Shown: positions 2,370-62,290 of the stretch, piece after piece
Numbering within the stretch: the first letter of the stretch is position 1
Layout of the letters: each line of letters opens with the position of its first letter
Source: Jimgerdemannia flammicorona
Lineage: Eukaryota
Assembly (NCBI GenBank): GCA_003990765.1
Contig: RBNJ01000002.1
Span: 1-64,000 of the forward strand
Direction: 5' to 3'
DNA length: 64,000 bases
Program-made: the position numbers and the translations under genes
Notes under the pieces: generated by a model
Told to the model about the DNA's origin: nothing
Database searches by the model: none
Seen by the model: only the letters and a program-made list of their open reading frames with translations

Positions 2370-2783
2370 AACCAAATACTCCACACCTATCCATACATAC
2401 TATATATTATCCTCCTGAATACTATAATTATCAAAAAATCAAGAACTCAGCAAAACAAGACAAGAATACTGACTCTCTAAAAAAAAAAAAATAGCAAAAC
2501 TGAAAGCCAGCCTATTCTCTCCATACCACTGATGGGAAATAAGGCATAGACATTTAAGAAGATTCTATAGAGGAAATTCTCTAGCAGTGAATGACATCAG
2601 AATCACTTCTGACACATGGTATTGAATACATAACTCTTTAATGTGTGAATACAACATGTTAGACAACTGTACTACAAGCATGCCACTTTCTGAAAAAATA
2701 GACTTTACTGGACTTTTGATCTCCCAAACAGTGTAATAATACTAGAACAAAATTAGAAGGCCCTGATGAGGATATCAAAAGCT

Positions 2784-2796
2784 AAGAAGGGGAGAG
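2784..2796 (+). promoter_or_regulatory. polypurine tract of copy A
   Basis: AAGAAGGGGAGAG directly upstream of the LTR TG. Confidence 0.85.
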
Positions 2797-2797
2797 T

Positions 2798-4766
2798 TGT
2801 AAGCATATAACCTCCAAGCCACTGAAATCACACACGACCTCCAAACAAATCTGGAAATCACCTGCTTGATCACAAAGCTGAGTCAAACCAAAGTCACAGT
2901 ACATAAAGCTGAGTCAACATAAAGTCACAGAACACAAGATTCACATAAATGGAATCTTACCAATCAGGACCAAATGTATATATACCAAGTACTGAGACAC
3001 ATCGAAACAGAGAACCAAAACAAACAATAACTACAACTTCCAAACACACAGACATGACCACTGAGATCTACAACCATATTCACGCTGATATTTGGAATGC
3101 CATTATCAACTGAGCCACACCTCCTCTATCTCTTATGAATATCCATAGCCTAGCACCCCTCTACTTCATGAAAGCCCAATAGAATGCTCTGAACATACTT
3201 AGCGAGGCCTACTGAATCAGACAAATCTCAAGCTACTACCAGATCGGCCACCTCCTAGAAGACATGGTCGAATACTACCATGATACAGATATTACCCAGA
3301 TGTCTCAACACCAGAAGCTCATCACCTACAAACATCAAGAACTCTTCTACAAGTATAGCACCATTATCCCTGCCTCTGAGTTACCATAGCCGAAATGATT
3401 GCTACTCTGTCCTATAGCCAAATTGACAACATAATACAAGAACTCAACCACAAGTACCTCGAGTATATCAAAATCACAGACAGAACCTTACCCCAATGAT
3501 CATATTCTGTAAATGCCCCAAGTTAGATACACTATGAAGGACATCTATAATATAATCCACTTCGACAAAGATGAAGCAGAAGACAATGATCCCTCTGATG
3601 CCAACATGACCTCAAGCTAAGGATCTCTGCCAACTCTGATCATACCACCAACCTTGTTGATGAACTTATAATAATTCATAACAGCATATAAGACTTATTG
3701 GGACAATGACCACTAGCATGAATACCAACCTGCATTCACCCCTGATTACTTCAACTACAATGAAGAAACTGGAGAACACAACCTATACCTCCAGACAAAC
3801 CTCAAGATCAAACCAACCACTCCACTACCTAAGTATGAGTGATATGAACCACAGCTACCAGCTTACTACAACTCTATGACTTATAGTACTGTAATCTATA
3901 GAAGTATATGAGACAGATGATGCTATCCTGTGGGACAGTGACAAAGTTCCAATGTATTATTACCTCAGCGAACAAGGAGAAGTAATCCACAAATCACTCT
4001 TTCTAAACAACTATTTTATCAGAGATAATGCAATCGATGGTGATATCATTGAAGACTATCCAGACAGTGTCTAAATCTATAAATAGCCCAGCAGTCATAG
4101 TATAGTTAGATTAGCCTTATACGATATGACTGTGAACTAACTCAGCAGTCAGATGATCTCTTGACATATCAGATCACACTTGTACTATGTGACTGCATTC
4201 TGACTCAGCAAGGCACTTAGTACTACATATATCCATATCTAGCATAGTCTAGATAGCCCCTCACTAGTATAAATACCCCCTCCCCCAGACCTCAGAATCT
4301 CAGATTTGAAAGACTTAAACAATCTAAACACAACTCCTGAGTACTTCCCCACAATATCCCTTTATACAACTACTCCTAATATAGTAATATCATGAATAGC
4401 GAATAAACCTATTTAATAATCTATAAACCACTCTTAAGTAAATCTACTCCCTGTTAGGTCCTACTCTTAACTCTATCACGAAATTTCCAAATTGGGTATT
4501 GTCTATAGCAATATGCTGATTCAACTAAGCTGGTCTTAGTTTCTTGAACTTCCTGAAATATGGAAAATCCTGAATATCCAGAACTAGTCCAAAAAAGGAC
4601 TTTGGTTGAGATGTCAACCTGAACTTGAAATCAATAAGCATAGAGGACATACTCCATATGAAATTGATCTTGACCATAAGAAAATGGTCTTTCAGAATAT
4701 CTAGAATTTCTAGAAAACTTTTCTAGAACTATATAATGGTTACTCTAAAAAAGCAACCCTCTTACA
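2798..4766 (+). repeat. family 1 long-type LTR (3' LTR of copy A)
   Basis: TGTAAG/CTTACA terminal inverted repeat; homologous to 22863-24904 and 31216-33262; TATA-like TATAAATA at 4268-4275. Confidence 0.93.
3054..4074 (+). pseudogene. U3-encoded accessory ORF of family 1 LTR (disrupted; ~70-bp deletion near 3905)
   Basis: MTTEIYNHIHADIWNAII...YYQIGHLLEDM...DGDIIEDYPDSV*; same protein as 31877-32974. Confidence 0.7.
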
Positions 4767-5096
4767 AGTATATAATAGCTAATTTAGATAATTCTTAATA
4801 AAATATAATATATATATATTATTAGACAATAGCTCTCTATATATCTTAGCAAAATAGTATGACTGAGTAATTTAACCATATAGCTATAGAGGTGATATAT
4901 AATAACTAATATTACTAAATTAAAATATTTATATTAGATAGAAGTAATTAATATTACAGTATATATATAATTAGTGAATCTCTCAATTATTAAATAAAAA
5001 ATATAGTAATAATGAAGATAAATATTATAGAGATATTGATCATATCTCTGAGGAGTTATAGAGTAAATCTAAGCTAGATATATATATCTTATCTAT

Positions 5097-6677
5097 TATT
5101 ATATACTGGTCACTGAGTCCTTCAAATATGTCAGATTCCCTTTAAGATATATATATCTCTTAGACTAATCATAAGTTTGTTATAAGCAAGTTCTTATTGG
5201 AGTATCTTTCTAAGATCTTATAGTCTTTAAATTTATCTTTAAACTGTCTTATTATCTCTTTAGATTGCTTGTGTAGAATTAAGTATAAGTGAACTTGACT
5301 GACTTTATTTTAAAGGATAAGAGGGATATTTATATAAAATATAATTCAATAGTTACTAAGATATAAAGCTAAATATAAATTCCAATAACTAAATAAAATA
5401 CTGAAATATAGAAAACTTTGGTTGTAAGTATAAATTTGAGTATCTGTACAAATAGTCACATAAGTTCAGAATGTCAGTAGATTTTGATAGTATAGGAAAA
5501 GAATGCTGGTAGAATTTAGTTATATAGAAAAAAGATACCAGAAGATTTCAGTATTACTAAGAACTTAGAGCAAAAAGTTCAGAACTATAGAGGCTTCATC
5601 TTTGCTACTATCATTAAGGCTAGAGGTCAGAAATAGAATATCTTTAAAGGAAATGAGATTGGTGAATATTTTATCTATTTTATATATTTTGTATATATCA
5701 CCAATTAGCAGGATGATATCATTGCTGATGATGTCATTATAGATAATATCATCTCATTTAGTGGCAGAGAAAGCAAGAAGATCTGAGGCTCTCCAATCTA
5801 TGAGGTTCTCTTTTATAAAATAAGAGACAAATATGGGATCTTGAGGAGGTCTAACCTGGATGCTAGAGTTTTAGAATACTGAGATCAATTTCTTATAGAA
5901 ATTAATCTGGATTGTTCTGGAAGATAGGATTCCAGAACTCTTCTACCTCATTACTATTGAGGGTGATAGTGGACTGAGCTTTTGTGGCCACTATAGTCTC
6001 CAGTATATTAGTATGATGAGCTGATAGTTCTTTAAAGTCTGAGACTTTAGTATACTCTAAGTTGGAAATTGACTACAATATATATCTGAAGACCTGATAA
6101 ATCTTCTTCACTATCCTTATTTTATGTACATCTATGGGAGTGGTATCTTGAATCTCTTGGGAACTGGTCTGAGAGAATTCCCAGCAGAGAAGGTTTCCTA
6201 TTTCATACTTCTATCATATCTAGAGATATTCAGTAGTGATAGTAATCCTTGTTTCTATTTTATAGTGATTGAGAATATAATGATAGAGATCATTAGTACT
6301 CAGATTGAGGCTAGAAGTTCTTCTTATATAGATTCTCATGGCTCTTCTAATGTCTTGAAACATTTTTTCCTAGACTGAGAGGTCTTGATGGTTCCTGGAT
6401 CTTGAGGTTTGGTAAGTGGCAGGAATTTTATTTGTGATAAGTCTTTTGAACTATTTCTGTGAGCCTTATTTGAGTTACTGCTACTACAGTTTCTTGATCC
6501 TTTTTATATTTCTCAAGATATCTGTCTTGTAGTCATAATGACTCATGGTTGATCATCATTATTCATATTGTAGTCTGAGTATATTATGCTATATAATCTT
6601 CTTATACTCTGATCTAGTAGCTTATAAGGAAAGGCTATCTCCTGTGATAATATCATTATTCTGAAGTTACTGTTATA
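5097..6677 (-). repeat. family 3 LTR (3' LTR of copy B), carries degraded accessory ORF ~5563-6363
   Basis: Homologous to 12359-13930 and 47095-48572; minus-strand YEIGNLLCWEF motif. Confidence 0.9.
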
Positions 6678-12358: not shown

Positions 12359-13930
12359 TGTCATATACTAGTTACTGAGTTCTTCAAATATGTCAGATTC
12401 TCTTCAAGATATATCTCTTAGACTAACCACAAGTTTGTTATAAGTAAGTTCTTATTAGAGTATCTTCTTAAGATCTTATAGTTCTCAAACTTCTTATCTT
12501 TAAACTGTCTTATTATCTCTTTAGATTACTTATATAGAATTGAGTATAAGTAAACTTGACTGACTTTATTTCAAAGAAAATAAGAGGAGTATTTATACAA
12601 AATATAATTCAATAGTTGTTAAGATATAAAGCTAAATATAAATTTCAATAACCAAATAAAATACTGAAACATAGAAAACTTCAGTTATAAGTATAAATTT
12701 GAATATCTGTATAAATAGTTATACAAGTTCAAGATGCTAGTAGATTTTGGTAGTATAGGAAAAGAATGCTGGTAGAATTTAGTTATATAAGAAAAGAATA
12801 TCAGAAGATTTTAGTATTATCAAGAACTTAGAGCAGAAAGTTCTGGACTATAGGGACTTTATCTTTATCACTATCATCAAGGCTAGAAGTTGAGGACAGG
12901 ATATCTTTGAAGGAAATAAGATCAGTAAATATTTTATCTGTTTCACATATTTCATATATGTTACTAATTAGCTGAATAATATTATTACTGATGATATCAT
13001 CATGGGTAACATTATCTTATTTGGCAGTAGGGAAAGCAAGAAGGTCTAGGACTCTCCAATCTATAAGATTCTCTTTCACAAAATAAGAGACAAATGTGGG
13101 ATCTTGGAGAGGTCTAACCTGAATGCTAGAGCCTCAGAATACTGAGATTAATTCTTATAGAAATTGATCTGGATTATTCTGAAGAATGGGATTTCAGAAC
13201 TCTTCTATCTTATTACTATTGAGGGAAATAGTGGACTGAGCTTCTGTAGCCTCTAGTACATTGATATGGTAGGCTAATAGTTCCTTGAAGTCTGAGACTC
13301 TAGTATACTCCAAGTTGGAGATTGATCATAGTACATACCTGAAGACCTGATGAATATTTTTTGCCATCCTTATTTCATATACATCTATAGAGGTAGTATC
13401 TTGAATCTCTTGGGAACTGGCCTGAGAGAATTCCGAGTAGAGGAGGTTTTCTATTTCATACTCCTGCTATATCCAAAGGTATTTAGTAGCAATAGTGATT
13501 CTTATATCTATTTCACAGTGATCAAGAATATAATGATAGAAATCACTAGTATCCAAATTGAGGCTAGAAGTTCTTCTTGTGTAGGTCCTTATGGCTCTTC
13601 TGATGTCTTAGAATATTCTTTCCTAGACTGAGAGATCTTAATGGTTTCTAGACCTTGAGATTTGATGAGTGGTAGGTATTTTGTTTGTAATAAGTCTTTT
13701 GAACTATTTCTGTGAGTCTTGTTTGAGTTGCTACTACTGTGGTTTCTTGATTATTTTTATATTCCTTAAGATATCTGTCTTGTAGTTATAATGACTCATA
13801 GTTGGTCATTATTACTTATATTATAGTCTGGGTAAGTTATACTATATACTCTTCTTGTACTTTGATCTGGTAGCTTATAAGGAAAGACTGTTTTCTGTAA
13901 TAATGTCATTATTATGAGGTTACTGTTACA
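12359..13930 (-). repeat. family 3 LTR (5' LTR of copy B), carries degraded accessory ORF ~12826-13620
   Basis: TGTCA...TTACA termini; followed on the minus strand by ACT-TGGTGCCTATTG PBS. Confidence 0.9.
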
Positions 13931-28755: not shown

Positions 28756-28777
28756 GGTAGGTTGGGCTGGGGCCTTG

Positions 28778-29190: not shown

Positions 29191-29199
29191 TCTGGTGAT

Positions 29200-31215
29200 C
29201 AGGTTGTTGAGGTGGTGTAGAGTGGTAACAGTTGCTCATATTGCTATTTGGGGTTTTCGGTTAGGGTAGGCACTGGTCATGTGTCCTATCTTTCAGCAAT
29301 AGAAGCATGCTCCGCTTCTTCAAAGTTCATTCCTTTCGCCTTCAGTAAGTTTCTTGAAGGGACTTGGCTGGGTGGGTTCATGATTTCTGGGTGTCCAAGA
29401 GGTGGATGTGGAGGGAGCTCAAGATGCTTTATGCTTGGGTTCTTCTTTCTTGGTCCAAGTCTTTTCCTTGTTGTTAAATTGCCTTCAGGGCAGAATTGGT
29501 CCAGCTGTTAGGATTCGCTTGATCATGGTCTTGATTCTTGCCAGACACCATTGTTGGTGATCACAACTAACTGAGCAGCCTTGTTCTCAGATTTTTCTAG
29601 TAAGCCATTCAGGCAGGGCATCAAATAAATGGTCTGCTCTTGTACCATTTCGTGCTTCATCATTGGTAATGTATCCTAGGCCAACAGTGTTCAGGAGTGA
29701 CTCGAGTTTTGTACAGAAGGTTTCAAATTCTTTCTTGCCATATACATCAAATTTGAGGTTGTGGAGTTTTACTCAAGATTTGGTAATCATGGTTTTGCTG
29801 CAGTATTGAGCAATCATAAGTTTTTTGAGTCCAGGGGCTGCAGGATGGGCTCCATATCCTGGGGCATTGTTTGCTACATTCTGAGCAACTACTGCAGGTT
29901 GGGTATCCCATGTGAGGGCTTTTTCAGAAAGAGTTCACCACCATTCTTCGGCAGATCCTCGGAAGAATGTAACAACTCAGTGGACATAGGCTGTAGTGGT
30001 GGCAAAGAGTTGTTCCAGTGTGTGGTCTTGATTGTTTGTCAGAACATGGTTAGCAACTCACTCATTAGTCTATTGATTGGCTTCAAAGTTGGTGTCAACT
30101 ATACTAATGAAGCTTTGGACTTCTTGTGCAGTACCATTAAAGGTAGGTAGGCTCAGATTTTTCATAGGTTGGGTCTGTTCAGCTAAGGCAGTAATGGTTG
30201 CTACCATTATAGCTACTTGGGCTGTGAGATCAAGAATCTGTTGGTTCGCCATATTATTTACTGGAGGCAGTTGGACTGCTGGTAGTAGTGTTACTGGTAC
30301 TACTTGAGGTACTGGTGCAGAGTATAATGGGGTTCTTTGGGTCTGGGTAAGTTGCTAGAGTAGTAGTTGTGGATCTGAAGTAAGGGCTTGATAGATAGCT
30401 GTTTGTTGTTGTGTAGGTGTATTCTGTCCTAATGGGAGTGTGTCTCCTTCAGTAGTGTATCTGGGATTGAATTCAGTAAGATACTTCTCCTCCTCTTCAG
30501 TTTGGTCCCTGTATAATTGGGTTTGCTCGGTGTCGAAGTAGACAGAATCAGTTGTATATCTGATTTCAGAGGGACTTAATTCAAGGTCAAGTTCAGGTTC
30601 AGTGTTGGTTTTGGATTCAGGTAGGGCTGTAGCAGGGCCTGCTTCAGGTTTCAGGGTCAGGTAGTTGATGAAGAGTTTCTCTCACTTCTTCTTTAAGAAT
30701 ATGGTGGGCCTTGCTGTTCTGGAATCGGTAGTATAATGTAGTCTTGGTCCTGGTATGGTGAAAGTCAGTAGAGTTGAGCCACTTGGCTATAGAGGCTTGG
30801 GCTTCCTGAGGAACTAAGGCTAGAAAGACTACTGCTGGTTGTCCTAGATCACTCGGATTTATAGAGCTGACAAAACTCTTGTTGAGAAGAGTAAAGAAGG
30901 CTTCAATAAGACCTTCTTCATCTTGACTTACTGGGTGTAGTGCAAGGAGTTCAGTGAATAGGGTTTCATCTATTTGCTGGTTTAACTGGAGTACTTCTTT
31001 CTTTGAATGAAGTTTATCCCACTTGTTGCAGGTGTGGAGGTCAAATTGTCCTTATACATTAGGTTCAATTCTCTCCAGATTGTCAGATAGTTCAGGATAA
31101 ATTCCAGTTCAGAGGTTGGGCTTTATACCAACTTATAGAAATTCTCAGAAGGGTTTGTAGTGGGGTGAGGAAGCATCTTGAAGTGGAATTGGATTGTAAA
31201 CCACTGCTACCAAGT
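29200..31215 (-). pseudogene. gag: gag of copy D with long N-terminal extension and CCHC zinc knuckle (~29260-29310)
   Basis: LSLPTFNGTAQEVQSFI; FFRGSAEEWW; GACFYC*KIGHMTSAYP; frame continues ~320 codons upstream of MANQQ (30252). Confidence 0.85.
31201..31212 (-). promoter_or_regulatory. primer binding site, compatible with initiator tRNA-Met
   Basis: TGGTAGCAGTGG 3 nt after the LTR; TGGTAGC matches the 3' end of initiator tRNA-Met (host tRNA not available to confirm). Confidence 0.7.
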
Positions 31216-33262
31216 TATAAGAGGGTTGCTTTTTAAGATAACTATTACATAGTTTTGGAAAGGTTTTCTGGAAGTTCTGGATATTCTGGAAGACTGTTTT
31301 CTTATGGTCAAGATCAATTTCATATGGAGTATATCCTCTATGCTTATTGATTTCAAGATCAAGTTGATGTCTCAACCAAAGTCCCTTTTTGGACTAGTTC
31401 TGGATGTTCAGGATTTTCTGTATTTCAGGAAGTTCAAGAAACTAAGACCAGCTTAGTTGAATTGGTGTATTGCTGTAGACAATACCCAATTAGGAATTTT
31501 CATGAGGGGGTTAGAAGTAGGATTTACTTAAGGGTGGTTTGCAGGTTATTTGAATGGGTTTATTCACTATTCATGATATTGCTATACTAGGAGTAGTTGT
31601 GTGAAGGGATATTGTGGGGAAGTGTTCAGAAATGTTCTTGTGTGTTCGAGACTGAGATTCTGAGGTCTGGGGGAGGGGGTATTTATACTAGTGAGGGGCT
31701 ATCTGGACTATGCTGAATATGGATGTAGCACTAAGTGCCTTGCTGAGTCGGAATGCAGTTACATAGTACAAGTGTGATCTGACATATCAAGAGATTGTCT
31801 GACTGCTGAGTCAGTTCACAGTCACATCATACAAGGCTAATCTAACTATACTATGACTGCTAGGCTATTTATGGATTTAGGCACTATCTGGGTAGTTCTC
31901 GATGACATCACCATTGATTGCATCATCTCTGATGAAGTAGTTATCCAGAAAAAGTGGTTCACAGATTACTTCTCCTTGTTCACTGAGGTAATAATATATT
32001 GGAACTTTGTCTCTGTCCTACAAGATGGTCTCATCTGTCTCATATGCTGGATAAGGTATTGGTGGGCAAAGGAGGGGTGCATCATTTTCACTTTCATCAG
32101 ATTCGCTGTCTGCATATCTTCTGTAGGTTACAGCACTATGAGTCACAAGGTTGTAGTAGGCTGGTGGCTATGGTTCATGTCACTCATACTCAGGTGGTGA
32201 AGTGGTTGGTTCAATCTTGAGGGTTGTCTGGAGGTACAGGTTGTGTTCTCTGGTCTCTTCATTATAGTTGAAGTAATCAGGGGTGAATGCAGGTTGGTAT
32301 TTGTACCAGTGGTCATTGTCCCAATAAGTCTCATATGCTGTTATGAATTGTTATAAGTTCATTAGCAAGGTTGGCAGTATGATCAGGGTTGGCAGAGATC
32401 CTTGGCTAGAGGTCATATCAGTATTGGAGGGATCATTGTCTTCTGCTTCATTTTTATCGAAGTGGATTATATTGTAGATGTCCTTTATGGTGTATCCAAC
32501 TTGGGGCATTTGCAGGATATGATCATTGGGGTATGGAAAGGTTCTGTCTGTAGTTTCAATGTACTCAAGATATTTGTAGTTAAGTTCTTGTATCATATCA
32601 TCAATTTGGCCATAGGACAGGGTAGCAACCATTTTGCTAGTAGTAACTCAGAGGCAGGGAATAATGGTACTGTACTCGTAGAAGAGTTCTCGATGTTTGT
32701 GGGCGATGAGCTTCTGGTGTTGAGACATCTGGGTAATGTCTGTATCATGGTGGTGTTCAACCATATCTTCCAGGAGGCAGCTGATCTGGTAATAGCTTGA
32801 GATTTGTCTGATTTAGTGGGCCTTGCTAAGCATGTTCAGAGCATTCCATTGGACTTCCACGAAGTAGAGGGGTGCTAAGCTATGGATATTCATGAGGGGC
32901 AGGGGGGGTGTGGCTCGGTTGACAATGGCATTCCAAATGTCAGTGCAGATACGGGTATAGATCTCAGTGGTCATGTTTGTATGTTTAGAAGTTGTAGTTG
33001 TTGTTTGTTTTGGTTTTCTGATTCGATACATTTCGGTGCTCAGTATATATGCATTTGATCCTGATTGGTAAGATTCCATTTGTGTAAATCTTGTGTTCTG
33101 TGACTTCATATTGACTCAGCTTTGTGCACTGTGACTTCAGTTTGACTCAGCTTTGTGATCAAGCAGGTGATTTCCAGATTTGTTCAGAGGTTGCATGTGA
33201 TTTCAGTGGCTTGTTCAGAGGGTGACATGTAATTTCAGTGGCTTGGAGATTGTGCACTTATA
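31216..33262 (-). repeat. 5' LTR of copy D (2047 bp)
   Basis: Direct repeat of 22863-24904; both termini mutated TG>TA/CA>TA; TATA-like box near 31680. Confidence 0.95.
31877..32974 (-). pseudogene. U3-encoded accessory ORF, 366 codons in one frame (extendable to 33109), few internal stops
   Basis: ORF-track pieces 32813-33109 and 32351-32632 share a frame that runs on to DYPDSA*; several stops are sense codons in other LTR copies. Confidence 0.75.
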
Positions 33263-44319: not shown

Positions 44320-46385
44320 AAGTCCTTTTCAGTCTTTTTAGTAGTTCCTTCAATAATCAGAAAATATGCAATTACTAGGAATGTATTTTGTTAATATATT
44401 TGCCAAATATATTTAAAGAGATTGTTAATAGAAATATATAGTAGATATATTTTGATACATTCAAGTAAATTATAATATATTTAGTCAATCTTAAGTAATA
44501 TCAGAATTACTATTATACTAAGTAAGAGTTTCTTCTATAGTTTGAAAAAAGAATTATAGTTTATGAACAGTGAGTATACTGATTGATCACCTGTAAACTT
44601 AAAATTAATTATTATTTTACCTATATTTGCTACTAAAAATCACTTTAATATATCTTAGAATACTTTCATATATCATCTGTAGTATAGTATTTCTCTGCTT
44701 CAAATTTCATATTATTTTTAAACAAAGTATTTAATATTAGCTTATATAGAATAGTAAGTAGATCTTGATAGAACAGTATATATTTACTAGTCTAAGTTTT
44801 AGACATATGAGTGATGTTAAAAACTTTGCAATTAAAGGACTAATTTGAAAAAGAGAATTACTAAATATTCATTAATTTAACAGAAATATTAACTATTTAA
44901 TTATATACCACTCTGTTTTCAGCTACTATATCTAAAAGTTTTATCATCTCTTTTGAGTTTATAAACTAGAGGGACCTATTCACTTGAAATTCTTCTATTT
45001 ACAAATAAAATAAGAAGTTTATCTATATATATTTCTACTTCAAAACAATAGATTCATGAGTCAAATTTCTTTATCATTCTTCTAAAGACATAAAGATTAT
45101 TTATATCAGTTATAGGTATCTATCTGAGTTTAGAAATAAATTCATTATTATATAAGTGTTTTCTTGCTATTGATAATCTGATTACTAGTTAGTTTGTAGA
45201 TAATATGATTTTTTTGCTCCTTTCTCCACTACCTTACTGGTTACAAGGTTTGGTAGGCAACCTTCTAAGTCTCCTTTTCCCTAATATTCCTCTCTCTACC
45301 TTGGGTTGGTTTGCTGTGCCTGCAGAGATATAGTGAGAGGAGAGCAATGGTGATGAGTTGCCCCTTTATTGATGTCAGATCAGTACTTCCTCCACTTTTT
45401 CAGGGGTTCTGGTGCCTTCAGCTGTATCTGGAGTGTACTCATTTTGATGCGGCACCTTCTTCCTTTTGCCATCGCCAATAAGGAGATGTCTTGATATATC
45501 TCGGACTATGTAGGGAGTTGGCCAACCTTGGGCATCAAGTGCTCAGTGTAGATTACCTGCTGGTCCTCGGTACCTGTGGTGGGGCCCTCTGGCTTTGGCG
45601 AGCTTTCTGGTGAGCATAGTTCTGGCATAGGTGACTGCTTTTTGGGTGTTGTCGGGATGGGAGGGGAGATGGCCATCACAGATAGGAGAAAGGGTGATAA
45701 CAGTGGACCAGTAGGGTGCCAGGCTGGGGGTGGTCATTGGGGCTGGGGTGGATGCTGCATTGGTGGGGCCTTTTGATTGGTGTGGTGTAGTTAGATGGTA
45801 GGTGTTACTCTCAGCTTCTTTGGGCAATTCATGGGGTTGGGCCCCAGTCATTTGGGGGGGTTGGGGGGCCCGAGGCTACCTATTTCAGGCATCTTGGCTG
45901 CACTCAACTGGAACTAGGAGCTGACACAGTAATGTGATTGAGATCTATAGGCTTGAGTAGTGGGGTATTGGGGGTCTCCTCCCACCTCACATATAAGTCC
46001 TCTACTTACCTTGACTGGGAGAACCAGGCCCTACCCACCATATTGTGCTTTGATGAGGGTTTTTTCTTTGTCTGTTATTCTCTTTGGGGTGGTAGAGACT
46101 ATTCTATTCAGCTCGGACATGGCCTTGTATATATGTTGGGTTCTCAGGTATGCACTTTTGGTCATTGGTATATGGCTGGGTTTCCCCTGGTGGTAGAGAG
46201 AGCATGGTGTACAGAATGAGGTGTGGGCTACTTTGCCCTGTTGTGCCTAGTATGGTCGAGCTGCTGGACAATAGCTAGCCTAGGTTAATGAGGGGCAGTG
46301 CTTGATGGATGGTGGGGGAGGGTTTTGGCCTATATAGTCTAGGTTCCCTTCCAATAAAAATCTGCAGGACATAGAGTCTGTTAAA

Positions 46386-46445
<60 letters not shown>

Positions 46446-46930
46446 TAATATGATTTTTACTGAACTCCAATATAGTATAAACTTCTTTAATCTTAAATTA
46501 AATTTTCATTCTCCTTGAATGATTGTCTTTTCTCTTAAATTGAATTATTATTTTTACTAAATAATGTGTTTTTCTATTCTTAAATTGAAGATAGACCATT
46601 ACTACTGATATTATCTTAAATTAAATATATATATTTAGTATAATTACCTGAAATCTTCCAAGTTCATTTATGTGAGTTACTCAAACCTAAAATATATATA
46701 GAATTCAATATTAACTTATAAATTATAGATGGATTTATAGACAATAGTAGTGTAATTTTAAAGTTACTAAAATCTTGAACTATAAATTCAAGAATAGACT
46801 TATCATTCTAATATCATATAAGTATATCATATATCTTACAGATATATTGAGTCAATCTTAAGACAGATTTGTACTTTAGATTACAATATGAGCAAGAAAG
46901 CTTTATATTGATATTAGTTTGAAGTAGAGA
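44320..46930 (-). pseudogene. Plavaka-like transposase relic with N-terminal C2H2 finger, interrupted by a retroposed insert
   Basis: CSYCNLKYKSVLRLTQ (~46830-46900); FYQDLL..NTLFKNNMKFE..KYSKIY*SDF**QI*; KIYLLYISINNL..LVIAYF, matching the YRD/YSE..DWW..Q/YPLY.SIGN pattern. Confidence 0.55.
45214..46442 (+). mobile_element. retroposed poly(A)-tailed insert of unknown origin (~1.17 kb plus ~56 A)
   Basis: Perfect 16-bp TSD AGATAATATGATTTTT (45198-45213, 46443-46458); AATAAA at 46353-46358; poly(A) from 46387; GC-richer than flanks. Confidence 0.9.
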
Positions 46931-47399
46931 AGAATTTGAAGAATAATATAAATTTTAATAGTAAGTTTATAATTATGAAAAATACTAGCCTAAAACTGAA
47001 TTCTTTATCTGATTGACTTTATACTTTTGCCCTTACTTAACATGCTTGCTTGCTTATTTAGTATACTTACTTAATATATACTTATTTAATATACTATAAT
47101 GATGACCTCAGAATGATGATATCAGCATAGGAGACAGTCTTTCCTTATAAGCCACTAGATCAGAGCATAAGAAGATCATACAGCATATGAGATGAGCAAT
47201 GATGTCCAACTGTGAGTCATTGTGACCACAGTACAAGCATCCTGAAGAATATAAAAGAAGGATTAAGAAACTGCAGTAGCAGTAACCAATAAGAACCACT
47301 AATCCCAAAATAGCTCAAAGACTTACTACAAACAAAATACCTGCTGCCCACCAAACCTCAAGGTCAAGGAATCACCAAGGCATCTCAGTTGAGGAAAGG

Positions 47400-47921
47400 A
47401 TGTTCCAAGACATCAGAAGAGCCATGAGGACCTGCTCAAGAAGGACTCCTAGTATCAATCTGGGTACTGCAGATCCCTATTACTTTATTCTCTACCACTA
47501 TGAAATGGAAACAAGGATCACCATTGCTACTGAATGCCTCCAAATATGGCAGGAGTATAAAATAGAAAATCTCCTCTGCCAGGAGTTCCCACAGGCCAGC
47601 ACTCAAGAGCTACAAGATGCCACTCCCATAGATATATGCAAAACAAGGATAGCTAAGAAGATTCATCAGATCTTCAGGTATGCATCATGGTCAATCCCCA
47701 ACTTGGAATATGTTAGAGTCTCAGATTTCAGAGACCTGTCATCTCACTGTATCAATGCACTAGAAGTCAGAGTGGCTACAGAAGCCCAGTCCACTATCAC
47801 TCTCAATAGTGATAAAGTAGAAGACTTCTGGCACCTCATTCTCCAGAACAACTCAGACCAATTCCTACAAGGATTGATCTTAGTATTTCAAGGCCCAAGC
47901 ATCCAGGTTAGACCTCCCTAA
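47400..47921 (+). CDS. LTR-encoded accessory protein (173-aa open stretch; homology extends both ways), function unknown
   Basis: Long stop-free stretch inside an LTR; conserved frame in both LTRs of copy B; similar to family 1 U3 ORF and family 2 ORF3. Confidence 0.7.
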   Translation: MFQDIRRAMRTCSRRTPSINLGTADPYYFILYHYEMETRITIATECLQIWQEYKIENLLCQEFPQASTQELQDATPIDICKTRIAKKIHQIFRYASWSIPNLEYVRVSDFRDLSSHCINALEVRVATEAQSTITLNSDKVEDFWHLILQNNSDQFLQGLILVFQGPSIQVRPP

Positions 47922-48102
47922 GACCCCACATTTGTTTCTTACTTTGTGGAAGAGAACCTTATAGATTGGAGAGCCCCTGATTTCCCTGTGTGACATCAAA
48001 GTATGCAAAAATGATGAATTCATAGATCTCATCTTCTTCAGTGATGATAATGATGATGATGAAGCCCCCATGATCCTGAACTTTCTACTCTAAGTTCTTT
48101 GT

Positions 48103-48240
48103 TACACTGAATAATGCCAGTACTAGTATTTTGATGTAACACTGAATAATACCAGCACCAATATTCTGAGGTGATATGAAATTGTTCTAGTACCGGTATT
48201 CTGATGTGATACTGAATTATACCAGTATCCTGAACCTGTA
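48103..48240 (+). repeat. ~35-bp imperfect tandem repeat (about 4 units) inside family 3 LTR
   Basis: ACACTGAATAATRCCAGYACYRRTATTYTGA units; also ~60970-61095 and fewer units in copy B LTRs. Confidence 0.7.
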
Positions 48241-48896
48241 CAATCATCAGTGTCAACCCTAGAACTTAGTAGTTTTAGTTATTGGAATTTATATTTAGCT
48301 TTATATCTTAGCAACCATTGAATTATATTTTGTATAAATACTCCTCTTATTTCCTCTGAAATAAAGTCAGTTCTATCTAGTTTACTTACATACTTCCTTG
48401 CAAGCAATCTAAGAGATAATAAGATAGTTTAAAGATAAGAAGTTTGAGAACTATAAGACCTTGGGAAGACACTCCAATAAGAACTTACTTATAACAAATT
48501 TAAGTTAGTCTAAGAGATATACCTTGAAGAGAATCTGGTATATTTGAAGGACTCAGTGACCACTATGTGACAATACTTATATTTTATCATATTAACTAAA
48601 CTCATTATATTATTATATTAACCAAACATAAGTAAGCAAGCTCTACATCCACTTATTAGACTTTTTGATAACATATATATATATATAACCATTATGAATA
48701 TTATAGATATACATAAAAAGAGATCTTTATCTTAAAGAATTATATATTTTCTTATTTCTCTTACCATAATCTTTTCATACCTAAAAAGAACAGATTATAT
48801 TCTAAGACAAACAAAATATACTCCAATATAAATAATAAGTATCAAGTTATGAATAATGTATACTAAGCCATGAACAAATGATATCAGTTCTGTAAA

Positions 48897-51430: not shown

Positions 51431-52951
51431 TACTCTATCAAGCAGGTCACTATTCTAGTCAAAGGCTGAACTCTGATACCTACTGAAATTGCAGTCTAAT
51501 GTTCTAAAGAATATTATATCAGAATTATACCATATCAGGACTCAAGTATTAGTACAATCTATATATATATCAATGAGGCTATCAGAGCCAAGAATTACAG
51601 AAATTATGGATAAGGATAATAATAAGGATACCTCTTCAAAAGATAAGAAAAAAAATAAATCTAGACTATAAAATAAAGTTAAAGCAAATTTAGGAGGATA
51701 TTGAGATCTGTCTAAGATATCTCATTATAACCATAAATATTATATAAATTATACTAGTACTTATAAGTATACTTATATTATAATAACTAATAAAAAGAAG
51801 TAGAAAAAGACTATAGATGAGAAATACAATTTACTTATCAAGAATGACATCTGAGATCTAGTCTCTCTCTTAGTAGATAGATAAACTATAGGATTAAAAT
51901 AGATCTATAAGATCAAATATAAAGCTAATAGAATAATAGAGTAGTATAAAGCTTAATTTGTAATAAAAGAGTATTTACAAGAATATAGTATAGACTATAA
52001 TAAAACCTTTTCTCTAGTATTCAAGCTTACTTTACTTAGATAGAGCTAAATATGACTATGAAATCCACCAAATAGATATTAAGATAGTATTTCTAAATAG
52101 AGATATAGATACCAAACTATATATATTATTTATAGAGATACAAACTATATAATAATAAACAAAAGAGCTCATATGTAAATTATATAAAGGTCTTTATGAT
52201 ATCAAATAAACAGTAAGACTATAGAATTAAAAAATCAATAAATACCTCTTAGATAATAAATTTAAGTATTGTAAAGCTGATTCATATATATATCTGGCAT
52301 ATATCCTCAGAAATAGTATTAGATAATATCATTCTAGTTAGAATAATGAGTGAAATCAATAATATAAAAACAATACTATAATAGAAATTTAAGATGATAA
52401 ATATGAGTAATATATTCTCTCTTCTTAGAATATTAATTATATATAATAGATATGAATATACTATATATCTATTATAAGCTATATATATTTGAACTATACT
52501 TGAACAATTTAGTATAAGTAAATACAAATCTGTTGGAATACCAATAGAGATATCTATAAGACTAAAGAAGTCCAGTGATACTATATTCAAAAATAACAAT
52601 ATCCTCTATTAGCAAGTTATATAATCTCTCATATATCTTATGCTTGAGATGAGACCTGATATATCATATATAGAATAAAGTAGTATAGTACTTATCTTAC
52701 TATAATAATATCTATTAGATTACAATTAAGTATATTTTTAGATATATCAAAGATATAGTATACTATATACTATATTTAAGTAGTAATAGATCAAATAAGA
52801 GTGCTATAAGACTAACTAGTATATATGATATAGATTGGGTTAAAGATCTTAATGATTAGTACTTTATAATTAAATAACTCTTCCAAATTAGTAAAAATAA
52901 AACTATTTTATAGTAAATATATAAGCAATCTTAAGTAGTAATATTATCTAT

Positions 52952-55328: not shown

Positions 55329-55445
55329 ATGAGTGAAGAAGAATGGTGCAAGAAGATGGCAGAAGGCTATGTACCACAAGGAGTCTGTCCTCATGGGATT
55401 AAGATGTACTGCATGGAGCATGTCAATGATTGCTACCAGTGCACC
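55329..55445 (+). other. Cys/His module between protease and dUTPase (unknown function)
   Basis: EEEWCKKMAEGYVPQGVCPHGIKMYCMEHVNDCYQC. Confidence 0.8.
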
Positions 55446-55571
55446 ATTGGAATCAAGAAGATCCACCAGGAAAAAAGGCAGAAAGCTCTCGAAAAACAGA
55501 TCAGAAAAGAAGAGAAGGAGGAAGATGACGAACCACCAGCTTTCCTGGAGGACAGTGATGATGAAGAAGAA

Positions 55572-58705: not shown

Positions 58706-59146
58706 ATGATGGTACTCAAGATCACTAGTGCCACCCAAAGGGCTATTGAGAGACAATGGTGCACCACCGAGCCCCTGACTATAGAGGAGTCTTATGACAG
58801 TATCCAAAGCATCATGCAGATTCATCTCTCTTGGATCTCACACTTCAAGGTCTATTAGCATCAGAATGAATTCTAAGAGTACTTCAAACTTGGCCAAGTA
58901 CTCAACTAAGACCCAGAAATGACTAAAGAAAATTGGATTGCAGAATGCCAGCTCTCCTATTCCCAGATCACTATTGCTAAGAGAATCCACAAGCTATTCC
59001 GAGAGGATGAATCAGCACTAGCCTACCTGTGAGGAGTGACTCCCTCAGACTTTGACCGAGTCAGGCGACATCATTGGGAAACAGTAATGCAACAAATCAT
59101 GCAATACAAGACCATACAGACCATTAAAGCTTGGGAGTTTAAATAG
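58706..59146 (+). pseudogene. ORF3 of copy F (147 codons, 4 internal stops), accessory protein
   Basis: MMVLKITS..EYFKLGQVL..ITIAKRIHKLFREDESALAYL*GVTPSDF..WEFK*; begins 13 nt after the integrase stop. Confidence 0.7.
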
Positions 59147-59183
59147 ATGCTTTAGGGACAAGATCATCTATTTAGGAGGAAGT

Positions 59184-59650
59184 TGTGATGGTATAGCCAG
59201 ATTCGGAAGAAGGAAATAGGGAATAGATACTTGATCACACTCAGTCCCAAAGTAGTATAGCTGCATAGTTAACAGTTCTCAATTTTGCAACTTGCTAAAT
59301 ATTTTGCAAAGTGCAAAATCGAGCTCTCTGATATAGTATAGTATTTCGCAACTAGCGAAACATTTCGCAAAGTGTTAAATGACTCATAACTTAGCCACGC
59401 AACCCAGTAACCATCTCATAGCTAGCAAACTTGTATAAATAACCCAGTATCTTCAAGTGAATAAACCTCAGATCAAAATAGTTCAAAGCAAAGAGATAGC
59501 AAAGGAACTAGTAAGCCTGTGGGCAGATACACTTTGAACTCACCCACCCTCCCCTGCAATTTCAAGAGACTCTGCAAGAGTCAGAACAGTCAAGTCTTCA
59601 AGATACAGAAATCTGACATACTTTCAAGAGTAAGCATCTACTACATTACA
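59184..59650 (+). repeat. 3' LTR of copy F
   Basis: TGTGAT...ATTACA, preceded by PPT, followed by TSD CTAT. Confidence 0.95.
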
Positions 59651-60147: not shown

Positions 60148-61218
60148 TATCATATAGTGGTTGCTGAGTTCTTCAAATATGTCAGATTCTCTTTAAGGTA
60201 TATCTCTTAGACTAACTTAAGTTTGTTATAAGCAAGTTCTTATTGGAGTAGTACTCCCAACAAATCAAATCAAATCAAATTTGGCCCAAACTCGATTTGA
60301 TTCAATCGAATCAAGGGTCTAATTCAATTCGATTCAAATCAAATCAAAGGTCCAATTTAATTTGAAGTTCAATTCAAACCTTAATTTTCAAAATGTAATA
60401 ACTCGACGAACACTCATCCAAATTTAACATATTTTAGCTTGTTAGATTCACCATATTAATGTGATTCTAATAAGCTAAAGTATGTTAGATTTGGATGAGT
60501 TTACGCTGAGTTATTGCATTTTGAAAATTAGGGTTCGAATCAGACCCTCAATTCAATTTGACTTTTGATTCGATTCGAATTGATTTGAATTGAAAAATCC
60601 CCAATTCAATTCGACTTGTTTAACCCTCAATTCGATTCAACTTGTTTAACCCTCAATTCGATTCAATTCAAATTGATTTGACTTGTTTGGGAGTACTATA
60701 TTGGAGTACCTTTTCAAGATCTTATAGTCCTCAAACTTCTTATTTTTAAACTGTCTTGTTATCTCTTAGATTGCTCATAAGGAATTTGTATATAAGTGAA
60801 CCAGAACTGACTTTATTTCAGAGGAAATAAGAGGAGTATTTATACAAAATATAATTCAATAGTTGTTAAGATATAAAGCTAAATATAAATTCTAATAACT
60901 AAAATGAAATGTCAGAACAAGAAAAACTACTAAGTTCCAGGGTCAGTACTGATAGTTATATAGGTTCAGAATGCTGGTATAATTTTGATAGTACAGGAAA
61001 ATAGTGCTGGAATAATTCAGTGTTATCTCAGAATATCAGTGCTGACATAATTTGGTATCATATCAAAATACCAGTACTGGTATAACTCAGTGTAACTAAA
61101 GAACTTCAGAGCAGAATATTCAAGACTATAGGGGCTTCATCTTTATCAGAGGTCAGAATGTCTTTGAAGAAGATGAGATCTGCAAATTTATCATTATTGT
61201 GTACTTCATGTATATTGT
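60148..61218 (-). repeat. truncated family 3 LTR containing a MITE
   Basis: Reverse complement of ~47990-48572; cut by LINE sequence at ~61220. Confidence 0.85.
60249..60698. mobile_element. hAT-type MITE (450 bp)
   Basis: Perfect 8-bp TSD TATTGGAG (60241-60248, 60699-60706); TIRs TAGTACTCCCAA / TTGGGAGTACTA; ATTCR pentamer subterminal repeats; central hairpin. Confidence 0.92.
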
Positions 61219-61219
61219 A

Positions 61220-62290
61220 TAGGATAACATCATCTACTCAGCTCTTCTAGTACTTCTAACAAATCCTCCTTCTTCTCCTCCTCACTTCTCTTCACCCTTA
61301 TTATCTTACATATAAAGGCCCCCCACACTATTACTGATGACCAATTATAAGTCTTCTCAATAGCCTCCCTTCTAGTCAGCTGAAGCCAGATATCAATATC
61401 TCTTATTCTGAATGAGATCCCTTCTCAGATTCAAAACTCAATATTGACTACTTCCTCATACTCAGCCATAATCTCCTCTACTCTTCTCCTCATCTCTATA
61501 GTAGTTACTATGGATACTCCTTTTATCAGAAGTTGCACCATCCTGAGATCCTATTTTAAGCATCATACCATCAGAATATATATCTCCCCAACAGTCAGCT
61601 CTGCCTTCAGTATAACCTCTAATAGCTTAGCCTCTTTAAAACCCACCTCTACTCCTTTCAAACTCCTTAAAAACTTCACAGATACTATATTATCTATCTG
61701 CTTAGCAATTAGCTCCAAGACTATTTTCACTATCACTACTAAGCCTCAGAAGTACAGAGTGACTATAAACTCCAAGATTGACTTCTTAAGTAATGAGACT
61801 ATTACCAGGCCTATCACACCATCTACCAGATCCCTCATTCAGCTAGGCCCTATCTTCCTAGCCTTACTATCAGTAGTTATATTTGGATTTTTTTTTTTCA
61901 AATTACTAGTTACTACTCTATTAATAGTTATGCTCCCAGTTACTATACCATCAGCCCTTCTATCAGATACTTCCAAGAGAGTCTCTTCTAGCCTCCCAGC
62001 AGCAGCCTTCCCCTTACCACTCTATAGCTATCCATCTAGTCTAGCCACCAGACCCCCCTGCTTAATCTTCTTAGCAAAGCTCATCTGATTTCTCCCTGGC
62101 TGTATATTACCTCCTCCTCTACCACTACTGACCTCTCTTTCACTTACCAAAGTACTTGACATCTCCAACCCTACTCTCTGACTCCTCTCTACATGCTGCC
62201 AGCTAAATGCACTAGGGCTACCCTATTTAGTATACTCCATAGAACTCTAATTTGAGAATATGTTCTTAAGATATTTCTCCAAAGAATGGT
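61220..62290 (-). mobile_element. LINE 5' fragment (UTR and ORF1 N-terminal half)
   Basis: MSFAKKIKQGG at ~62085; similar to 18850-19850. Confidence 0.8.

Follow-up and report, generated by a model that had tools for sequence, protein, structure and literature searches.

An accessory open reading frame (ORF) encoded in or beside the LTR is common to three Gypsy families in the 64,000-nucleotide stretch of Jimgerdemannia flammicorona DNA analyzed here (hereafter the window), and comparison of the encoded proteins confirms that this sharing is real. As an explanation for the whole, we consider it reasonably probable that the ORF is a previously undescribed accessory "ORF3" gene of fungal-type Ty3/Gypsy elements with dUTPase, old in origin and encoding a putative trans-acting regulator.

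The three carrier families are Ty3/Gypsy (Metaviridae) elements, with paired LTRs, a PBS, a PPT and Pfam domains in the order RVP, RVT_1, RT_RNaseH, Integrase_H2C2 and rve. Family 1 is a chromovirus with the domain order gag-dUTPase-PR-RT-RH-INT-chromo, where the Chromo match (E 3.1e-15) follows SH3_Tf2-1. Families 2 and 3 have the order gag-PR-dUTPase-RT-RH-INT, and a chromodomain search of these two families, both represented by degraded copies, gave no match at E<=0.01 in any frame. The proposal that the ORF is common to a chromodomain lineage and two others is borne out, in the sense that no chromodomain was detected in those two. Target duplications of 4 bp were seen for the Family 2 element (CTAT), the Family 3 element (ATAG) and, as a possible duplication, a solo LTR of Family 3 (ATAC on both sides); the Family 1 element has no recognizable target duplication. 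Each of the seven ORF copies in the window has the same orientation as the element that carries it (sense strand), and each is mutated. The ORF lies 3' of pol, as the last gene on the genomic RNA. Other long frames of the window matched no family.

Copies of the Family 3 gene, with their surrounding features, are as follows:

47089..48575, plus strand: Family 3 solo LTR, ~1.49 kb, recognized by its self-blastn match to the LTRs of the element at 5101-13928
47250..47257, plus strand: TATAAAAG box, 150 nt 5' of the ATG that begins MFQ and ~87 nt 5' of the codon corresponding to the MPA start of outside homologues
47400..47921, plus strand: Family 3 ORF, ATG at 47400, stop at 47919-47921
47965..48096, plus strand: remnant of the gene's acidic C-terminal end, out of frame, reading ...DDNDDDEAPMILNFLL and then a stop
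12363..13928, minus strand: 5' LTR belonging to the complete element at 5101-13928, with the PBS TGGTGCC... after it; ORF copy at 13700-12831
5101..6675, minus strand: 3' LTR of the same element, with the purine tract AGGAGAAAGA just 5'; ORF copy at 6447-5568, frameshifted
61109..61237, minus strand: Family 3-type ORF fragment, acidic C-terminal part, in the LTR fragment 60699-61206

In a three-copy alignment the solo LTR runs from a TGTAA-type start to GTGACA. It is the single solo LTR in the window, and it holds the least broken copy of the ORF. The ORF at 47400..47921 lies inside a stop-free frame of 211 codons (47286-47921, plus strand) and represents the N-terminal 173 codons of a gene that was originally ~247-270 codons long. 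The TAA that ends it is CAA in the two other Family 3 LTR copies of the window and Q in the outside proteins. Near the C-terminal remnant, the solo LTR has a deletion relative to those two copies, and the remnant itself is covered by matches of the A2 profile described below (windows 47701-48240 and 47881-48420, frame +0, E 3e-4). The LTR pair of the full element is 83% identical, and no ORF remnant was found in the 370 nt separating its pol from the purine tract.

The Family 1 gene is present in three LTRs:

31215..33260, minus strand: 5' LTR of the element 22862-33260, ~2.04 kb, followed by the PBS TGGTAGCAGTGG
31877..32974, minus strand: ORF of that LTR, ATG (MTTEIY) at 32974, stop ending at 31877, 365 codons
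22862..24904, minus strand: 3' LTR, with the PPT AAAGCTAAGAAGGGGAGAGT just 5'; ORF copy at 24616-23531, with frameshifts
2736..4767, plus strand: LTR of a third Family 1 copy; ORF copy at about 3054-4071

The LTR pair is 90.8% identical. The frame of the 365-codon ORF has six stops (TAA, TGA, TAA, TGA, TAG, TAG), five of them counted in the span and the sixth at 32813-32815, and a TATAAATA box is located ~190 nt 3' of the ORF stop. A variant Family 1 LTR (40473-41880, 15308-16715) is missing most of the ORF, from which it follows that the gene is dispensable in cis.

Family 2 has a different layout:

58706..59146, plus strand: ORF3, ATG at 58706, TAG at 59144-59146, 147 codons with four in-frame stops
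59174..59182, plus strand: purine tract AGGAGGAAG, directly 5' of the 3' LTR
59183..59643, plus strand: 3' LTR, 461 bp, 94% identical to the 5' LTR at 52951-53411

The Family 2 ORF3 begins a few bases 3' of the pol stop, in another frame, and is a shortened gene that consists of the shared N-terminal domain only. It ends 27 nt before the purine tract, so that the gene is 5' of the tract and single-copy. In Families 1 and 3 the PPT is instead 5' of the gene, and the whole gene sits in U3, between the LTR start and the TATAAATA box; the gene therefore belongs to the part of the element that is copied into both LTRs. In position, which says nothing of homology, Families 1 and 3 fall into the class of retroviral U3-embedded accessory genes, and Family 2 does not. 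The first-pass annotation had described an accessory ORF in or beside the LTR of three Gypsy families, and all three ORFs are where it placed them; they are on the sense strand, inside U3 in Families 1 and 3 and before the PPT in Family 2. The peptides it quoted are also present; the G that it took from copy B is in the copy at 6477-5896 (EIGNLL), and for Family 1 the G/H occurs in the copy at 2913-3902.

A window self-blastn (E<=1e-10) joined no ORF region to the ORF of another family, in agreement with the earlier statement that the ORFs have no nucleotide similarity. Smith-Waterman scores for Family 3 against Family 2 were reached by 0 of 500 shuffles in all three pairs. For Family 3 against Family 1, the scores were reached by 3, 361, 18, 136, 34 and 9 of 500 shuffles, and for Family 1 against Family 2 by 20, 209 and 79 of 500. 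Because the comparisons with Family 1 are mostly not significant, single degraded copies prove only the link between Families 2 and 3.

Additional evidence came from a profile (A2) built from eight intact outside proteins, with no window sequence, which was searched against 2118 six-frame windows. The profile found the Family 2 ORF3 at E 2.6e-4 (17.4 bits) and the Family 1 copies at E 0.0098 (12.2 bits), 0.035 (10.4 bits) and 0.96 (5.7 bits), with 4.2 bits for the best unrelated window. Among decoys, the best reversed sequence outside the Family 3 windows scored 2.7 bits, the best shuffled sequence overall 4.1 bits, and reversed Family 3 windows 6.3 bits. An intact outside protein of the Family 1 type, P0011, scored 16.3 bits, against 9.5 bits for the top of 2000 shuffles. 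Profile-profile alignment with hhalign gave a score of 27.9 over 118 columns (P 0.0011), which was reached by none of 300 column-shuffled controls (mean 12.6, maximum 20.2); the hhalign probability was only 4.5-20%, though P was 0.001-0.009. When MAFFT was left unaided, the shared motifs fell in the same register. These data uphold the earlier claim of protein-level conservation across the three families.

A narrower reading is that the gene is common only to Families 2 and 3, as sister lineages, and that the Family 1 ORF is unrelated, its likeness reflecting chance or the convergence of helical-plus-acidic proteins. This would fit the reciprocal search, in which a profile of the Family 1 N-terminal region gave nothing significant against the window and the outside Family 3-type proteins (9.4 bits for Family 3 versus 8.9 bits of noise). 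It would also fit the low hhalign probability and the single-copy comparisons between Families 1 and 3, four of six of which were reached by at least 18 of 500 shuffles. Moreover, Family 1-type and Family 3-type proteins cannot be aligned in their C-terminal halves: in five comparisons, 45 to 836 of 1000 shuffles reached the score, and the marginal motif pair DPTFV-YFVEENVID / EPLFIDNYFIRDDVID belongs to the single comparison with 45. These observations are countered by the window-free profile, which ranks two Family 1 copies as the best of the 2118 windows outside the family, by the score of P0011 and by the hhalign controls. The alignment is colinear over ~120 residues, and the Family 1 and Family 3 genes share their place and orientation in U3. 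We therefore regard a gene confined to Families 2 and 3 as fairly unlikely, and the sequence comparisons give moderate support for a link of Family 1 to the other families.

With one gene in all three families as the preferred reading, its distribution can be considered. The first-pass annotation had suggested that the ORF was exchanged between lineages, a suggestion that the divergence data do not sustain. Between Family 1 and Family 3, the ORF domain is ~22-23% identical and pol is ~32-35% identical; because the ORF is more diverged than pol, nothing points to a transfer later than the split of the elements. By pol, Family 2 is closest to Family 3 (50-67% identical). Weak colinearity was seen between the Family 2 LTR and the final ~480 nt of the Family 3 LTR (TATA region E 0.016; LTR end E 0.12). 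In length, too, the Family 2 LTR is similar to what follows the ORF in the Family 3 LTR, an agreement that was counted in favor of a shift of the LTR boundary. The layout is explained equally well by common descent, if the polypurine tract moved in Family 2. Most likely, the gene was inherited from an old common ancestor or acquired by an ancient exchange, not a recent one.

Evidence that the ORF is a gene came from intact relatives outside the window, which have identities of 29-85% and lie on contigs of <=1.6 kb, too short to give the element context. Matches among intact outside ORFs numbered 4 of 47, 1 of 1027 and 1 of 63 candidates. Proteins P0001-P0004 are 72-85% identical to the Family 3 ORF and extend to ...LNFLL. 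P0011 is an N-terminal fragment of the Family 1 type (80% identity) that also starts with MTTEIY, and P0006 provides the C-terminal 247 amino acids of a Family 1-type protein (62% identity). Among 1.84 billion representatives, five small clusters were found at E<=0.001, down to 29% identity, and no cellular homologue. A metagenome scan returned 93 stretches matching the pattern, one of which was confirmed (locus L001, from soil) as an ORF of 291 codons; compared with the window copy, its pN is 0.40 and its pS, which is saturated, 0.70.

Repeats in the host genome are subject to heavy mutation through C>T/G>A transitions. At positions where the window copy has A or T, other copies in public sequencing runs carry G or C (in X1, for example, A>G 331 and T>C 190 versus G>A 199 and C>T 108), and for this reason the stops in the window copies fit decay by transitions. 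The runs that match the window include soil metagenomes, each match making up a small share, and none of the runs listed is RNA. Contigs from four public runs, all of them DNA or of unrecorded kind, showed no joint into the ORF that resembled splicing, and long joints that "go back" were only the expected LTR/internal junctions.

It could be argued that the ORF is a passenger that was retained through LTR copying, either a piece captured from a host gene or a frame in decay that does nothing for the element. The variant Family 1 LTR without most of the ORF and the retention of only the N-terminal domain in Family 2 are consistent with this view. Against it stand the five small clusters with no cellular relative among the representatives searched, the frames that are still open in relatives at 29-46% identity, and conservation at the level of protein, not nucleotides. 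We consider a passenger very improbable.

The encoded protein has a helical N-terminal domain of ~120 amino acids, the sole part common to all three families, and a C-terminal tail that is strongly acidic, rich in bulky hydrophobic residues and probably disordered. The Family 1 and Family 3 types are alike in this respect, with N-terminal halves near neutral and C-terminal halves with a net charge of -19 to -24; the Family 1 tail has a net charge of -21 and a pLDDT of 0.39 in an Atlas model. The last 70 residues contain 12-21 D+E, with a net charge of -8 to -17, in six of seven proteins. The seventh is P0011, an N-terminal fragment without the tail, whose last 70 residues contain 10 D+E. In all seven proteins this stretch has 16-27 F/W/Y/L/I/M/V residues. 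The composition of the tail fits that of an acidic transcriptional activation domain, as far as composition can suggest it.

Searches for a related domain or fold brought nothing that rose above background. Pfam returned no family at E<=10 for seven intact homologues, and a search of PDB sequences with profile A6 returned none at E<=10, so a match to an already described domain was not encountered. When the open pieces of the window ORFs of Families 1, 2 and 3 were searched, Pfam gave only two matches, both at chance level, well short of the cut-off (E 0.048 and 0.098) and confined to a single Family 1 piece. As had been proposed, the protein is not env-like, having neither a signal peptide nor a membrane segment: the highest 19-residue Kyte-Doolittle mean is 0.57-1.05 in the seven intact homologues, and the N-terminus is not hydrophobic. 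Two AlphaFold2 runs, with alignments of 8 and 13 rows, gave models with mean pLDDT of 50.7 and 53.7 and low confidence outside the helical core; with these models, Foldseek at E<=0.001 found no match in PDB (model 1) or BFVD (model 2). VIA-align of model 1, whose pLDDT is low, against 48,161 chains gave a best Z of 4.5; some helix-turn-helix repressors are among its weak rows, but their Z of 3.2-3.9 does not exceed background. In ESM Atlas, the best feature score for P0001 was 0.86, under the bar of 0.9, and points to Basidiomycota clusters as a lead only; P0006 had no usable feature match, with structural rows at TM <=0.30.

Given its place in U3 in Families 1 and 3, the gene is copied into both LTRs by reverse transcription and is retained in solo LTRs. 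In the mechanism we propose, the protein would act in trans as a regulatory adaptor. The form of this that we favor, tentatively, is a putative transcriptional activator of the family's own LTRs, with a logic comparable to that of foamy-virus Tas or HTLV Tax. If the gene also had its own TATA promoter in U3 and used the LTR polyadenylation signal, each LTR could be a small expression unit. In its fullest version, each LTR, solo LTRs included, would be an autonomous gene, with a TATA ~85 nt 5' of the start codon, a conserved leader, an ORF of 250-400 codons and its own polyadenylation signal. The product would be a putative family-specific trans-activator acting on all LTRs of its family, for which solo LTRs, in their hundreds, would form a dispersed reservoir, in a fungal counterpart of the circuits of complex retroviruses. 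We regard this version as unlikely.

Evidence for a dedicated promoter came from the TATAAAAG box, which is equivalently spaced in three Family 3 copies and L001. The box is at -145 in both other Family 3 copies of the window and 80 nt 5' of the ATG in L001. The nucleotides surrounding the start codon are conserved, and L001 and the window are 83% identical across 41 nt at the upstream start. Against a promoter of the gene's own, TATA-like words are common in AT-rich DNA, and the upstream start of the outside homologues is ATA or ATT in all three Family 3 copies of the window, the MPA start codon being ATA at the solo-LTR locus. In Family 2, the TATA-like box falls within the pol coding sequence.

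Two further proposals accept a real gene and assign it a different role. The protein could handle RNA in the manner of Rev or CERV, its helical domain binding unspliced genomic RNA for nuclear export or packaging and P-x-[IV]-L-N-F-L serving as the export signal. The gene is at the 3' end of the genomic RNA, like the regulatory genes of complex retroviruses, and in Cer1, also an LTR retrotransposon, a spliced mRNA is described as the source of a factor of this kind, CERV (PMC10309623). The Family 3 clade conserves a leucine-rich motif at the C-terminus, and some members have arginine-rich N-termini. However, P0008, P0009 and Family 1 do not conserve the arginine-rich stretch, Family 2 lacks the terminal motif, which is also not demonstrable in Family 1, and splice joints were not seen among the contigs of DNA or unrecorded kind. 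We consider an RNA-handling role improbable. The protein could also oppose host genome defense, as a suppressor of RNAi, heterochromatin or repeat-induced mutation, in line with the anti-silencing role suggested in the first-pass annotation. The elements reside in a genome that heavily mutates its repeats, and the family is fast-evolving and lineage-restricted, a pattern typical of conflict genes. The absence of similarity to any known suppressor or fold and the mutation of all seven window copies weigh the other way, and such a role is more improbable still. A trans-acting regulator is the reading we favor.

Fungal LTR retrotransposons are usually treated as gag-pol machines, and regulatory genes are regarded as a hallmark of complex retroviruses. 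A conserved coding gene located wholly in U3 and common to a chromovirus and a non-chromodomain lineage would mean that long fungal LTRs can owe their length to a carried gene, that solo LTRs can remain coding, and that a protein family is concealed whenever annotation pipelines mask LTRs. Should the protein be a trans-acting regulator, it would offer a handle on how bursts of a whole element family, non-autonomous copies included, are switched on. With five clusters among 1.84 billion representatives, the family is also a clean case of a protein for which no relative of known fold can be detected.

Retroviral accessory genes in or overlapping U3 of the 3' LTR include MMTV sag, HIV nef and foamy-virus tas/bet, the last with an internal promoter. 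The gene described here resembles them in being on the sense strand, 3' of pol and at the 3' end of the genomic RNA, and in Families 1 and 3 it is wholly inside U3; a possible dedicated promoter 5' of the gene would parallel the foamy-virus internal promoter in logic. Unlike the retroviral genes, it is carried by fungal-type Gypsy elements without env and gave no match in Pfam, PDB or BFVD.

In the literature covered, which includes subscription journals only thinly, no paper was found that describes an ORF inside a fungal retrotransposon LTR. Some fungal Gypsy elements have been reported to have an "add. ORF" of unknown function and a dUTPase whose position in pol varies (Novikova et al. 2010, PMC2864245). 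As in those elements, the dUTPase here is N-terminal of PR (Family 1) or between PR and RT (Families 2 and 3). The "add. ORF" appears in the text of that report, in the part available, without sequence, position or family, and the comparison is by description only. Boty-like (BcGypsy1) elements of Botrytis cinerea carry brtn, an antisense gene of unknown function (Zhao et al. 2011, as cited in PMC8365987). Both are extra genes in a fungal Gypsy element, but the ORF described here lies in U3 and is read in the sense direction; the two are set apart by the description in the citing paper, not by sequence, and a brtn-type antisense gene was ruled out by the orientation of all seven copies.

A parallel in distribution is offered by LTR retrotransposons of bdelloid rotifers, where extra ORF3 types occur across different Gypsy-like lineages, several with dUTPase (Rodriguez, Kenefick and Arkhipova 2017, PMC5408684). 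The likeness is in one type of extra ORF being carried by different Gypsy-like lineages. In contrast to the rotifer products, which can be recognized as enzymes or env-like proteins (GDSL esterase, DEDDy exonuclease, fusion glycoprotein), the protein here has no recognizable domain, and its gene has a U3 location. CERV of the Caenorhabditis elegans element Cer1 is a novel regulatory protein with a role in RNA export, and its mRNA is spliced (Sun et al. 2023, PMC10309623). The spliced mRNA and the export role are features of CERV; like CERV, the ORF described here would add to an LTR retrotransposon a protein besides gag and pol.

Three Gypsy LTR retrotransposon families in the window carry a sense-strand gene, 3′-terminal or embedded in U3, that is conserved at the protein level and whose product is a soluble, two-part protein. 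Nested, decayed LTR retrotransposons make up nearly all of the window, which is AT-rich (26-43% GC per 2 kb) and has strong local strand asymmetry. The three families were delimited by self-blastn of the window, and tblastn located three copies of the accessory frame (the ORF) in Family 1, three in Family 3 and one in Family 2. The coordinates that the first-pass annotation had given for all three ORFs proved exact throughout, and its statement that ORFs of different families lack nucleotide similarity was confirmed by the self-blastn.

Elements and ORFs in the window
22862-33260, minus strand: Family 1 full copy, LTRs ~2.04 kb and 90.8% identical
1-4767 and 37264-41205: further Family 1 copies
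52951-59643, plus strand: the single Family 2 copy, 461-bp LTRs 94% identical
5101-13928, minus strand: Family 3 full copy, LTRs ~1.5 kb and 83% identical
47089-48575: Family 3 solo LTR
32974 (ATG) to 31877, minus strand: Family 1 ORF, a single frame interrupted by six stops
58706 to 59146, plus strand: Family 2 ORF
47400 (ATG) to 47919-47921 (stop), plus strand: Family 3 ORF, inside a 211-codon open stretch

Domains in Family 1 pol run dUTPase, protease, RT, RNase H, integrase, SH3 and chromodomain. The Family 2 order is gag zinc knuckle, protease, dUTPase, RT, RNase H and integrase, and a domain search of the element found no chromodomain. Families 1 and 2 have ~35% of pol residues in common, Families 2 and 3 50-67% in longer segments; the internal part of Family 3 is 66.7% identical to Family 2 in DNA. 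The dUTPase precedes the protease in Family 1 (24903-31214, minus strand), an order that is swapped in Families 2 and 3 (Family 2: 53412-59182, plus strand). The two types are ~29% identical, in line with the independent acquisitions suggested in the literature; the position of the dUTPase varies among fungal Gypsy elements (PMC2864245). Three insertions have 4-bp target duplications on either side: CTAT for the Family 2 element, ATAG for that of Family 3 and ATAC for the solo LTR. A long homopolymer tract at 46375-46505, whose translation is poly-K from the plus strand and poly-F from the minus strand, closely precedes the solo LTR.

The Family 1 LTR starts with TGTAAGC, adjoining the purine tract AAAGCTAAGAAGGGGAGAGT, and the ORF starts ~290 nt into it; ~190 nt past the ORF end comes a TATAAATA box and then AATAAA. 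The Family 3 LTR is preceded by AGGAGAAAGA and has the ORF at approximately positions 250-1005 of its 1487 nt, with a TATAAATA box and AATAAA downstream. This layout makes the ORF U3 sequence in both families, so that the genomic RNA has it at the 3′ end but not at the 5′ end, and reverse transcription passes it to both LTRs. The Family 2 ORF begins a few bases past the pol stop in a different frame; its 147 codons comprise the shared domain only and end 27 nt ahead of the purine tract AGGAGGAAG, which is followed by the 461-bp LTR. In length the 461-bp LTR is close to the stretch that follows the ORF in the Family 3 LTR, and the two show weak colinearity (E 0.016 and 0.12). The simplest reading of these arrangements is a single 3′-terminal gene, with the polypurine tract on one or other side depending on the family.

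Evidence that the ORF is coding came from outside the window. The Family 3 ORF has four intact outside homologues (four matches among 47 candidates) of 174-271 residues and 72-85% identity, which show that the original gene extended via an acidic stretch to ...LNFLL. In the window this C-terminal end lies out of frame at 47965-48096, after the TAA and a deletion; at the TAA, the other two Family 3 LTR copies of the window have CAA and the outside proteins have Q. A profile made from these four proteins matched only five of 1.84 billion cluster representatives at E<=0.001, among them intact proteins at 46%, 40% and 29% identity. A metagenome contig scan gave one confirmed locus from 93 pattern matches, with an ORF of 291 codons. 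Compared with the window copy, its pN is 0.40 and its pS 0.70 (saturated), values compatible with constraint, weakly so because one partner is decayed. For Family 1, there is an intact outside C-terminal fragment at 62% identity (1 match among 1027 candidates) and an intact N-terminal fragment at 80% (1 among 63) that starts at the methionine chosen in the first-pass annotation. Judged from these outside data, the ORF is a gene, and the claim of an accessory gene is upheld by intact homologues, open frames and protein-level conservation.

The contigs of four public runs mostly have G or C where the window copy of the Family 1 element has A or T, so the in-frame stops are compatible with a frame that was once open and has decayed by transitions. 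Across 22862-31214, compared with X1 from the public runs, the window has A for G at 331 places and T for C at 190, the opposite directions being rarer (199 and 108); the pattern is transition decay biased to one strand, resembling repeat-induced point mutation or deamination. The longest stop-free frame of the window, 61384-62085 on the plus strand (234 codons, rich in S/T/I/L), matched no Pfam family above cut-off; a stretch related to it at 65% identity lies at 35308-35927. A frame that arose by chance in T-rich DNA mutated by transitions seems likelier here than a gene.

Homology of the three ORFs is of unequal strength. Degraded copies taken singly prove the Family 2-3 link only: none of 500 shuffles reached the score in any of the three pairs, compared with 3 to 361 of 500 for Family 1-3 pairs and 20 to 209 for Family 1-2 pairs. 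When a profile of eight intact outside Family 3-type proteins, built without window sequence, was searched against 2118 overlapping six-frame windows, Family 2 scored 17.4 bits (E 2.6e-4) and the Family 1 copies 12.2, 10.4 and 5.7 bits (E 0.0098, 0.035 and 0.96); the top unrelated window reached 4.2 bits, reversed decoys at most 2.7 (Family 3 windows left out) and shuffled decoys at most 4.1. The intact Family 1-type N-terminal fragment scored 16.3 bits, compared with a maximum of 9.5 among 2000 shuffles. Aligned by hhalign with the Family 1 N-terminal alignment, the outside profile scored 27.9 over 118 columns (P 0.0011), which 0 of 300 column-shuffled controls reached (mean 12.6, maximum 20.2); two further runs gave P 0.0091 and 0.0032. 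The Family 1 link is strengthened by the like place and orientation of the ORF in U3. Counting against it are low hhalign probabilities (4.5-20%), noise-level scores when the search was reversed, with the shallow Family 1 profile as query, and the lack of significant alignment between C-terminal halves. Families 2 and 3 almost certainly have homologous ORFs, and that of Family 1 is probably homologous to them. The common part is an N-terminal domain of ~120 residues with, in order, W/Y-x-Y-[EQ]-I-G-x-x-L, A-[KR]-K-x-H-x-[IVL]-F and I-P-x-L-x-x-V-x-V-x-x-x-x-x-L-S; MAFFT placed the motifs noticed at first pass in the same register unaided. The exchange of the ORF between lineages, also proposed there, was not borne out as a recent event, leaving the first-pass interpretation partly supported.

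The N-terminal halves are near neutral and the C-terminal halves carry a net charge of -19 to -24. Within the final 70 positions, acidic residues number 12-21 in the six tail-containing proteins, and bulky hydrophobic ones 16-27 across the seven proteins tested; the Family 1 tail is alike in character (Atlas model pLDDT 0.39). AlphaFold2 predicted a helical core (pLDDT 64-89) and little beyond. Pfam, PDB sequences, Foldseek and VIA-align gave nothing above background for the protein, and, as first described, it has no membrane-like segment.

The Family 3 ORF may possess a candidate promoter of its own. A TATAAAAG box lies 145-150 nt upstream of the methionine of the MFQ start in all three copies, and ~85 nt upstream of the MPA start of the outside homologues. 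At the metagenome locus (47% GC), the upstream 375 nt contain a single TATA-like word, which precedes the MPA start by 80 nt; around this start 41 nt are 83% identical to the window; the remaining coding DNA is not alignable. Interpretation calls for caution since AT-rich DNA often contains TATA words and the upstream start is ATA or ATT in all three window copies. Upstream of the Family 1 ORF, in the ~290 nt that open the LTR (33000-33200, minus strand), a ~32-nt motif is duplicated in tandem (GCCACTGAAAT[TC]ACATG...CTCTGAACA); two LTR copies carry it twice and copy 2736-4767 carries it once, and it may be an enhancer-like repeat. Positions 10-57 of the metagenome locus (48 nt, upstream of the ORF) are 79% identical to window 41392-41346 (E 1.6e-4), in a variant Family 1 LTR.

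This variant, ~1.4 kb long, occurs in two copies.
40473-41880, minus strand: variant Family 1 LTR without most of the ORF
15308-16715, plus strand: variant Family 1 LTR without most of the ORF
With the 2-kb LTR it has no more in common than the terminal ~740 nt and the C-terminal ~18 codons of the ORF; in place of the remainder of the ORF there are ~670 nt of other sequence containing no detectable relative of the protein. Its existence fits a trans-acting factor, dispensable in cis. The ORF would be transcribed from its own U3 promoter through to the LTR polyadenylation site, and its protein would act in trans. Given the acidic, hydrophobic-studded tail, which resembles acidic activation domains, and the position of the gene, the leading guess, albeit a tentative one, is a Tas/Tax-like protein that activates the family's LTRs; service in RNA export or packaging, or suppression of host defence, are alternatives ranked after it.

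Genes embedded in U3 are known from retroviruses. No description of such a gene in these elements was found in the literature searched, whose coverage is incomplete; what is new is the protein family and its location wholly within the LTR of fungal-type Gypsy elements, in two deep lineages. Extra ORFs as such have precedents: the rotifer ORF3 types, common to several LTR retrotransposon lineages (PMC5408684), brtn of a Botrytis LTR retrotransposon (as cited in PMC8365987), CERV of Cer1 (PMC10309623), and, in fungal elements, an ‘add. ORF’ that is not specified further (Figure 3 legend of PMC2864245).
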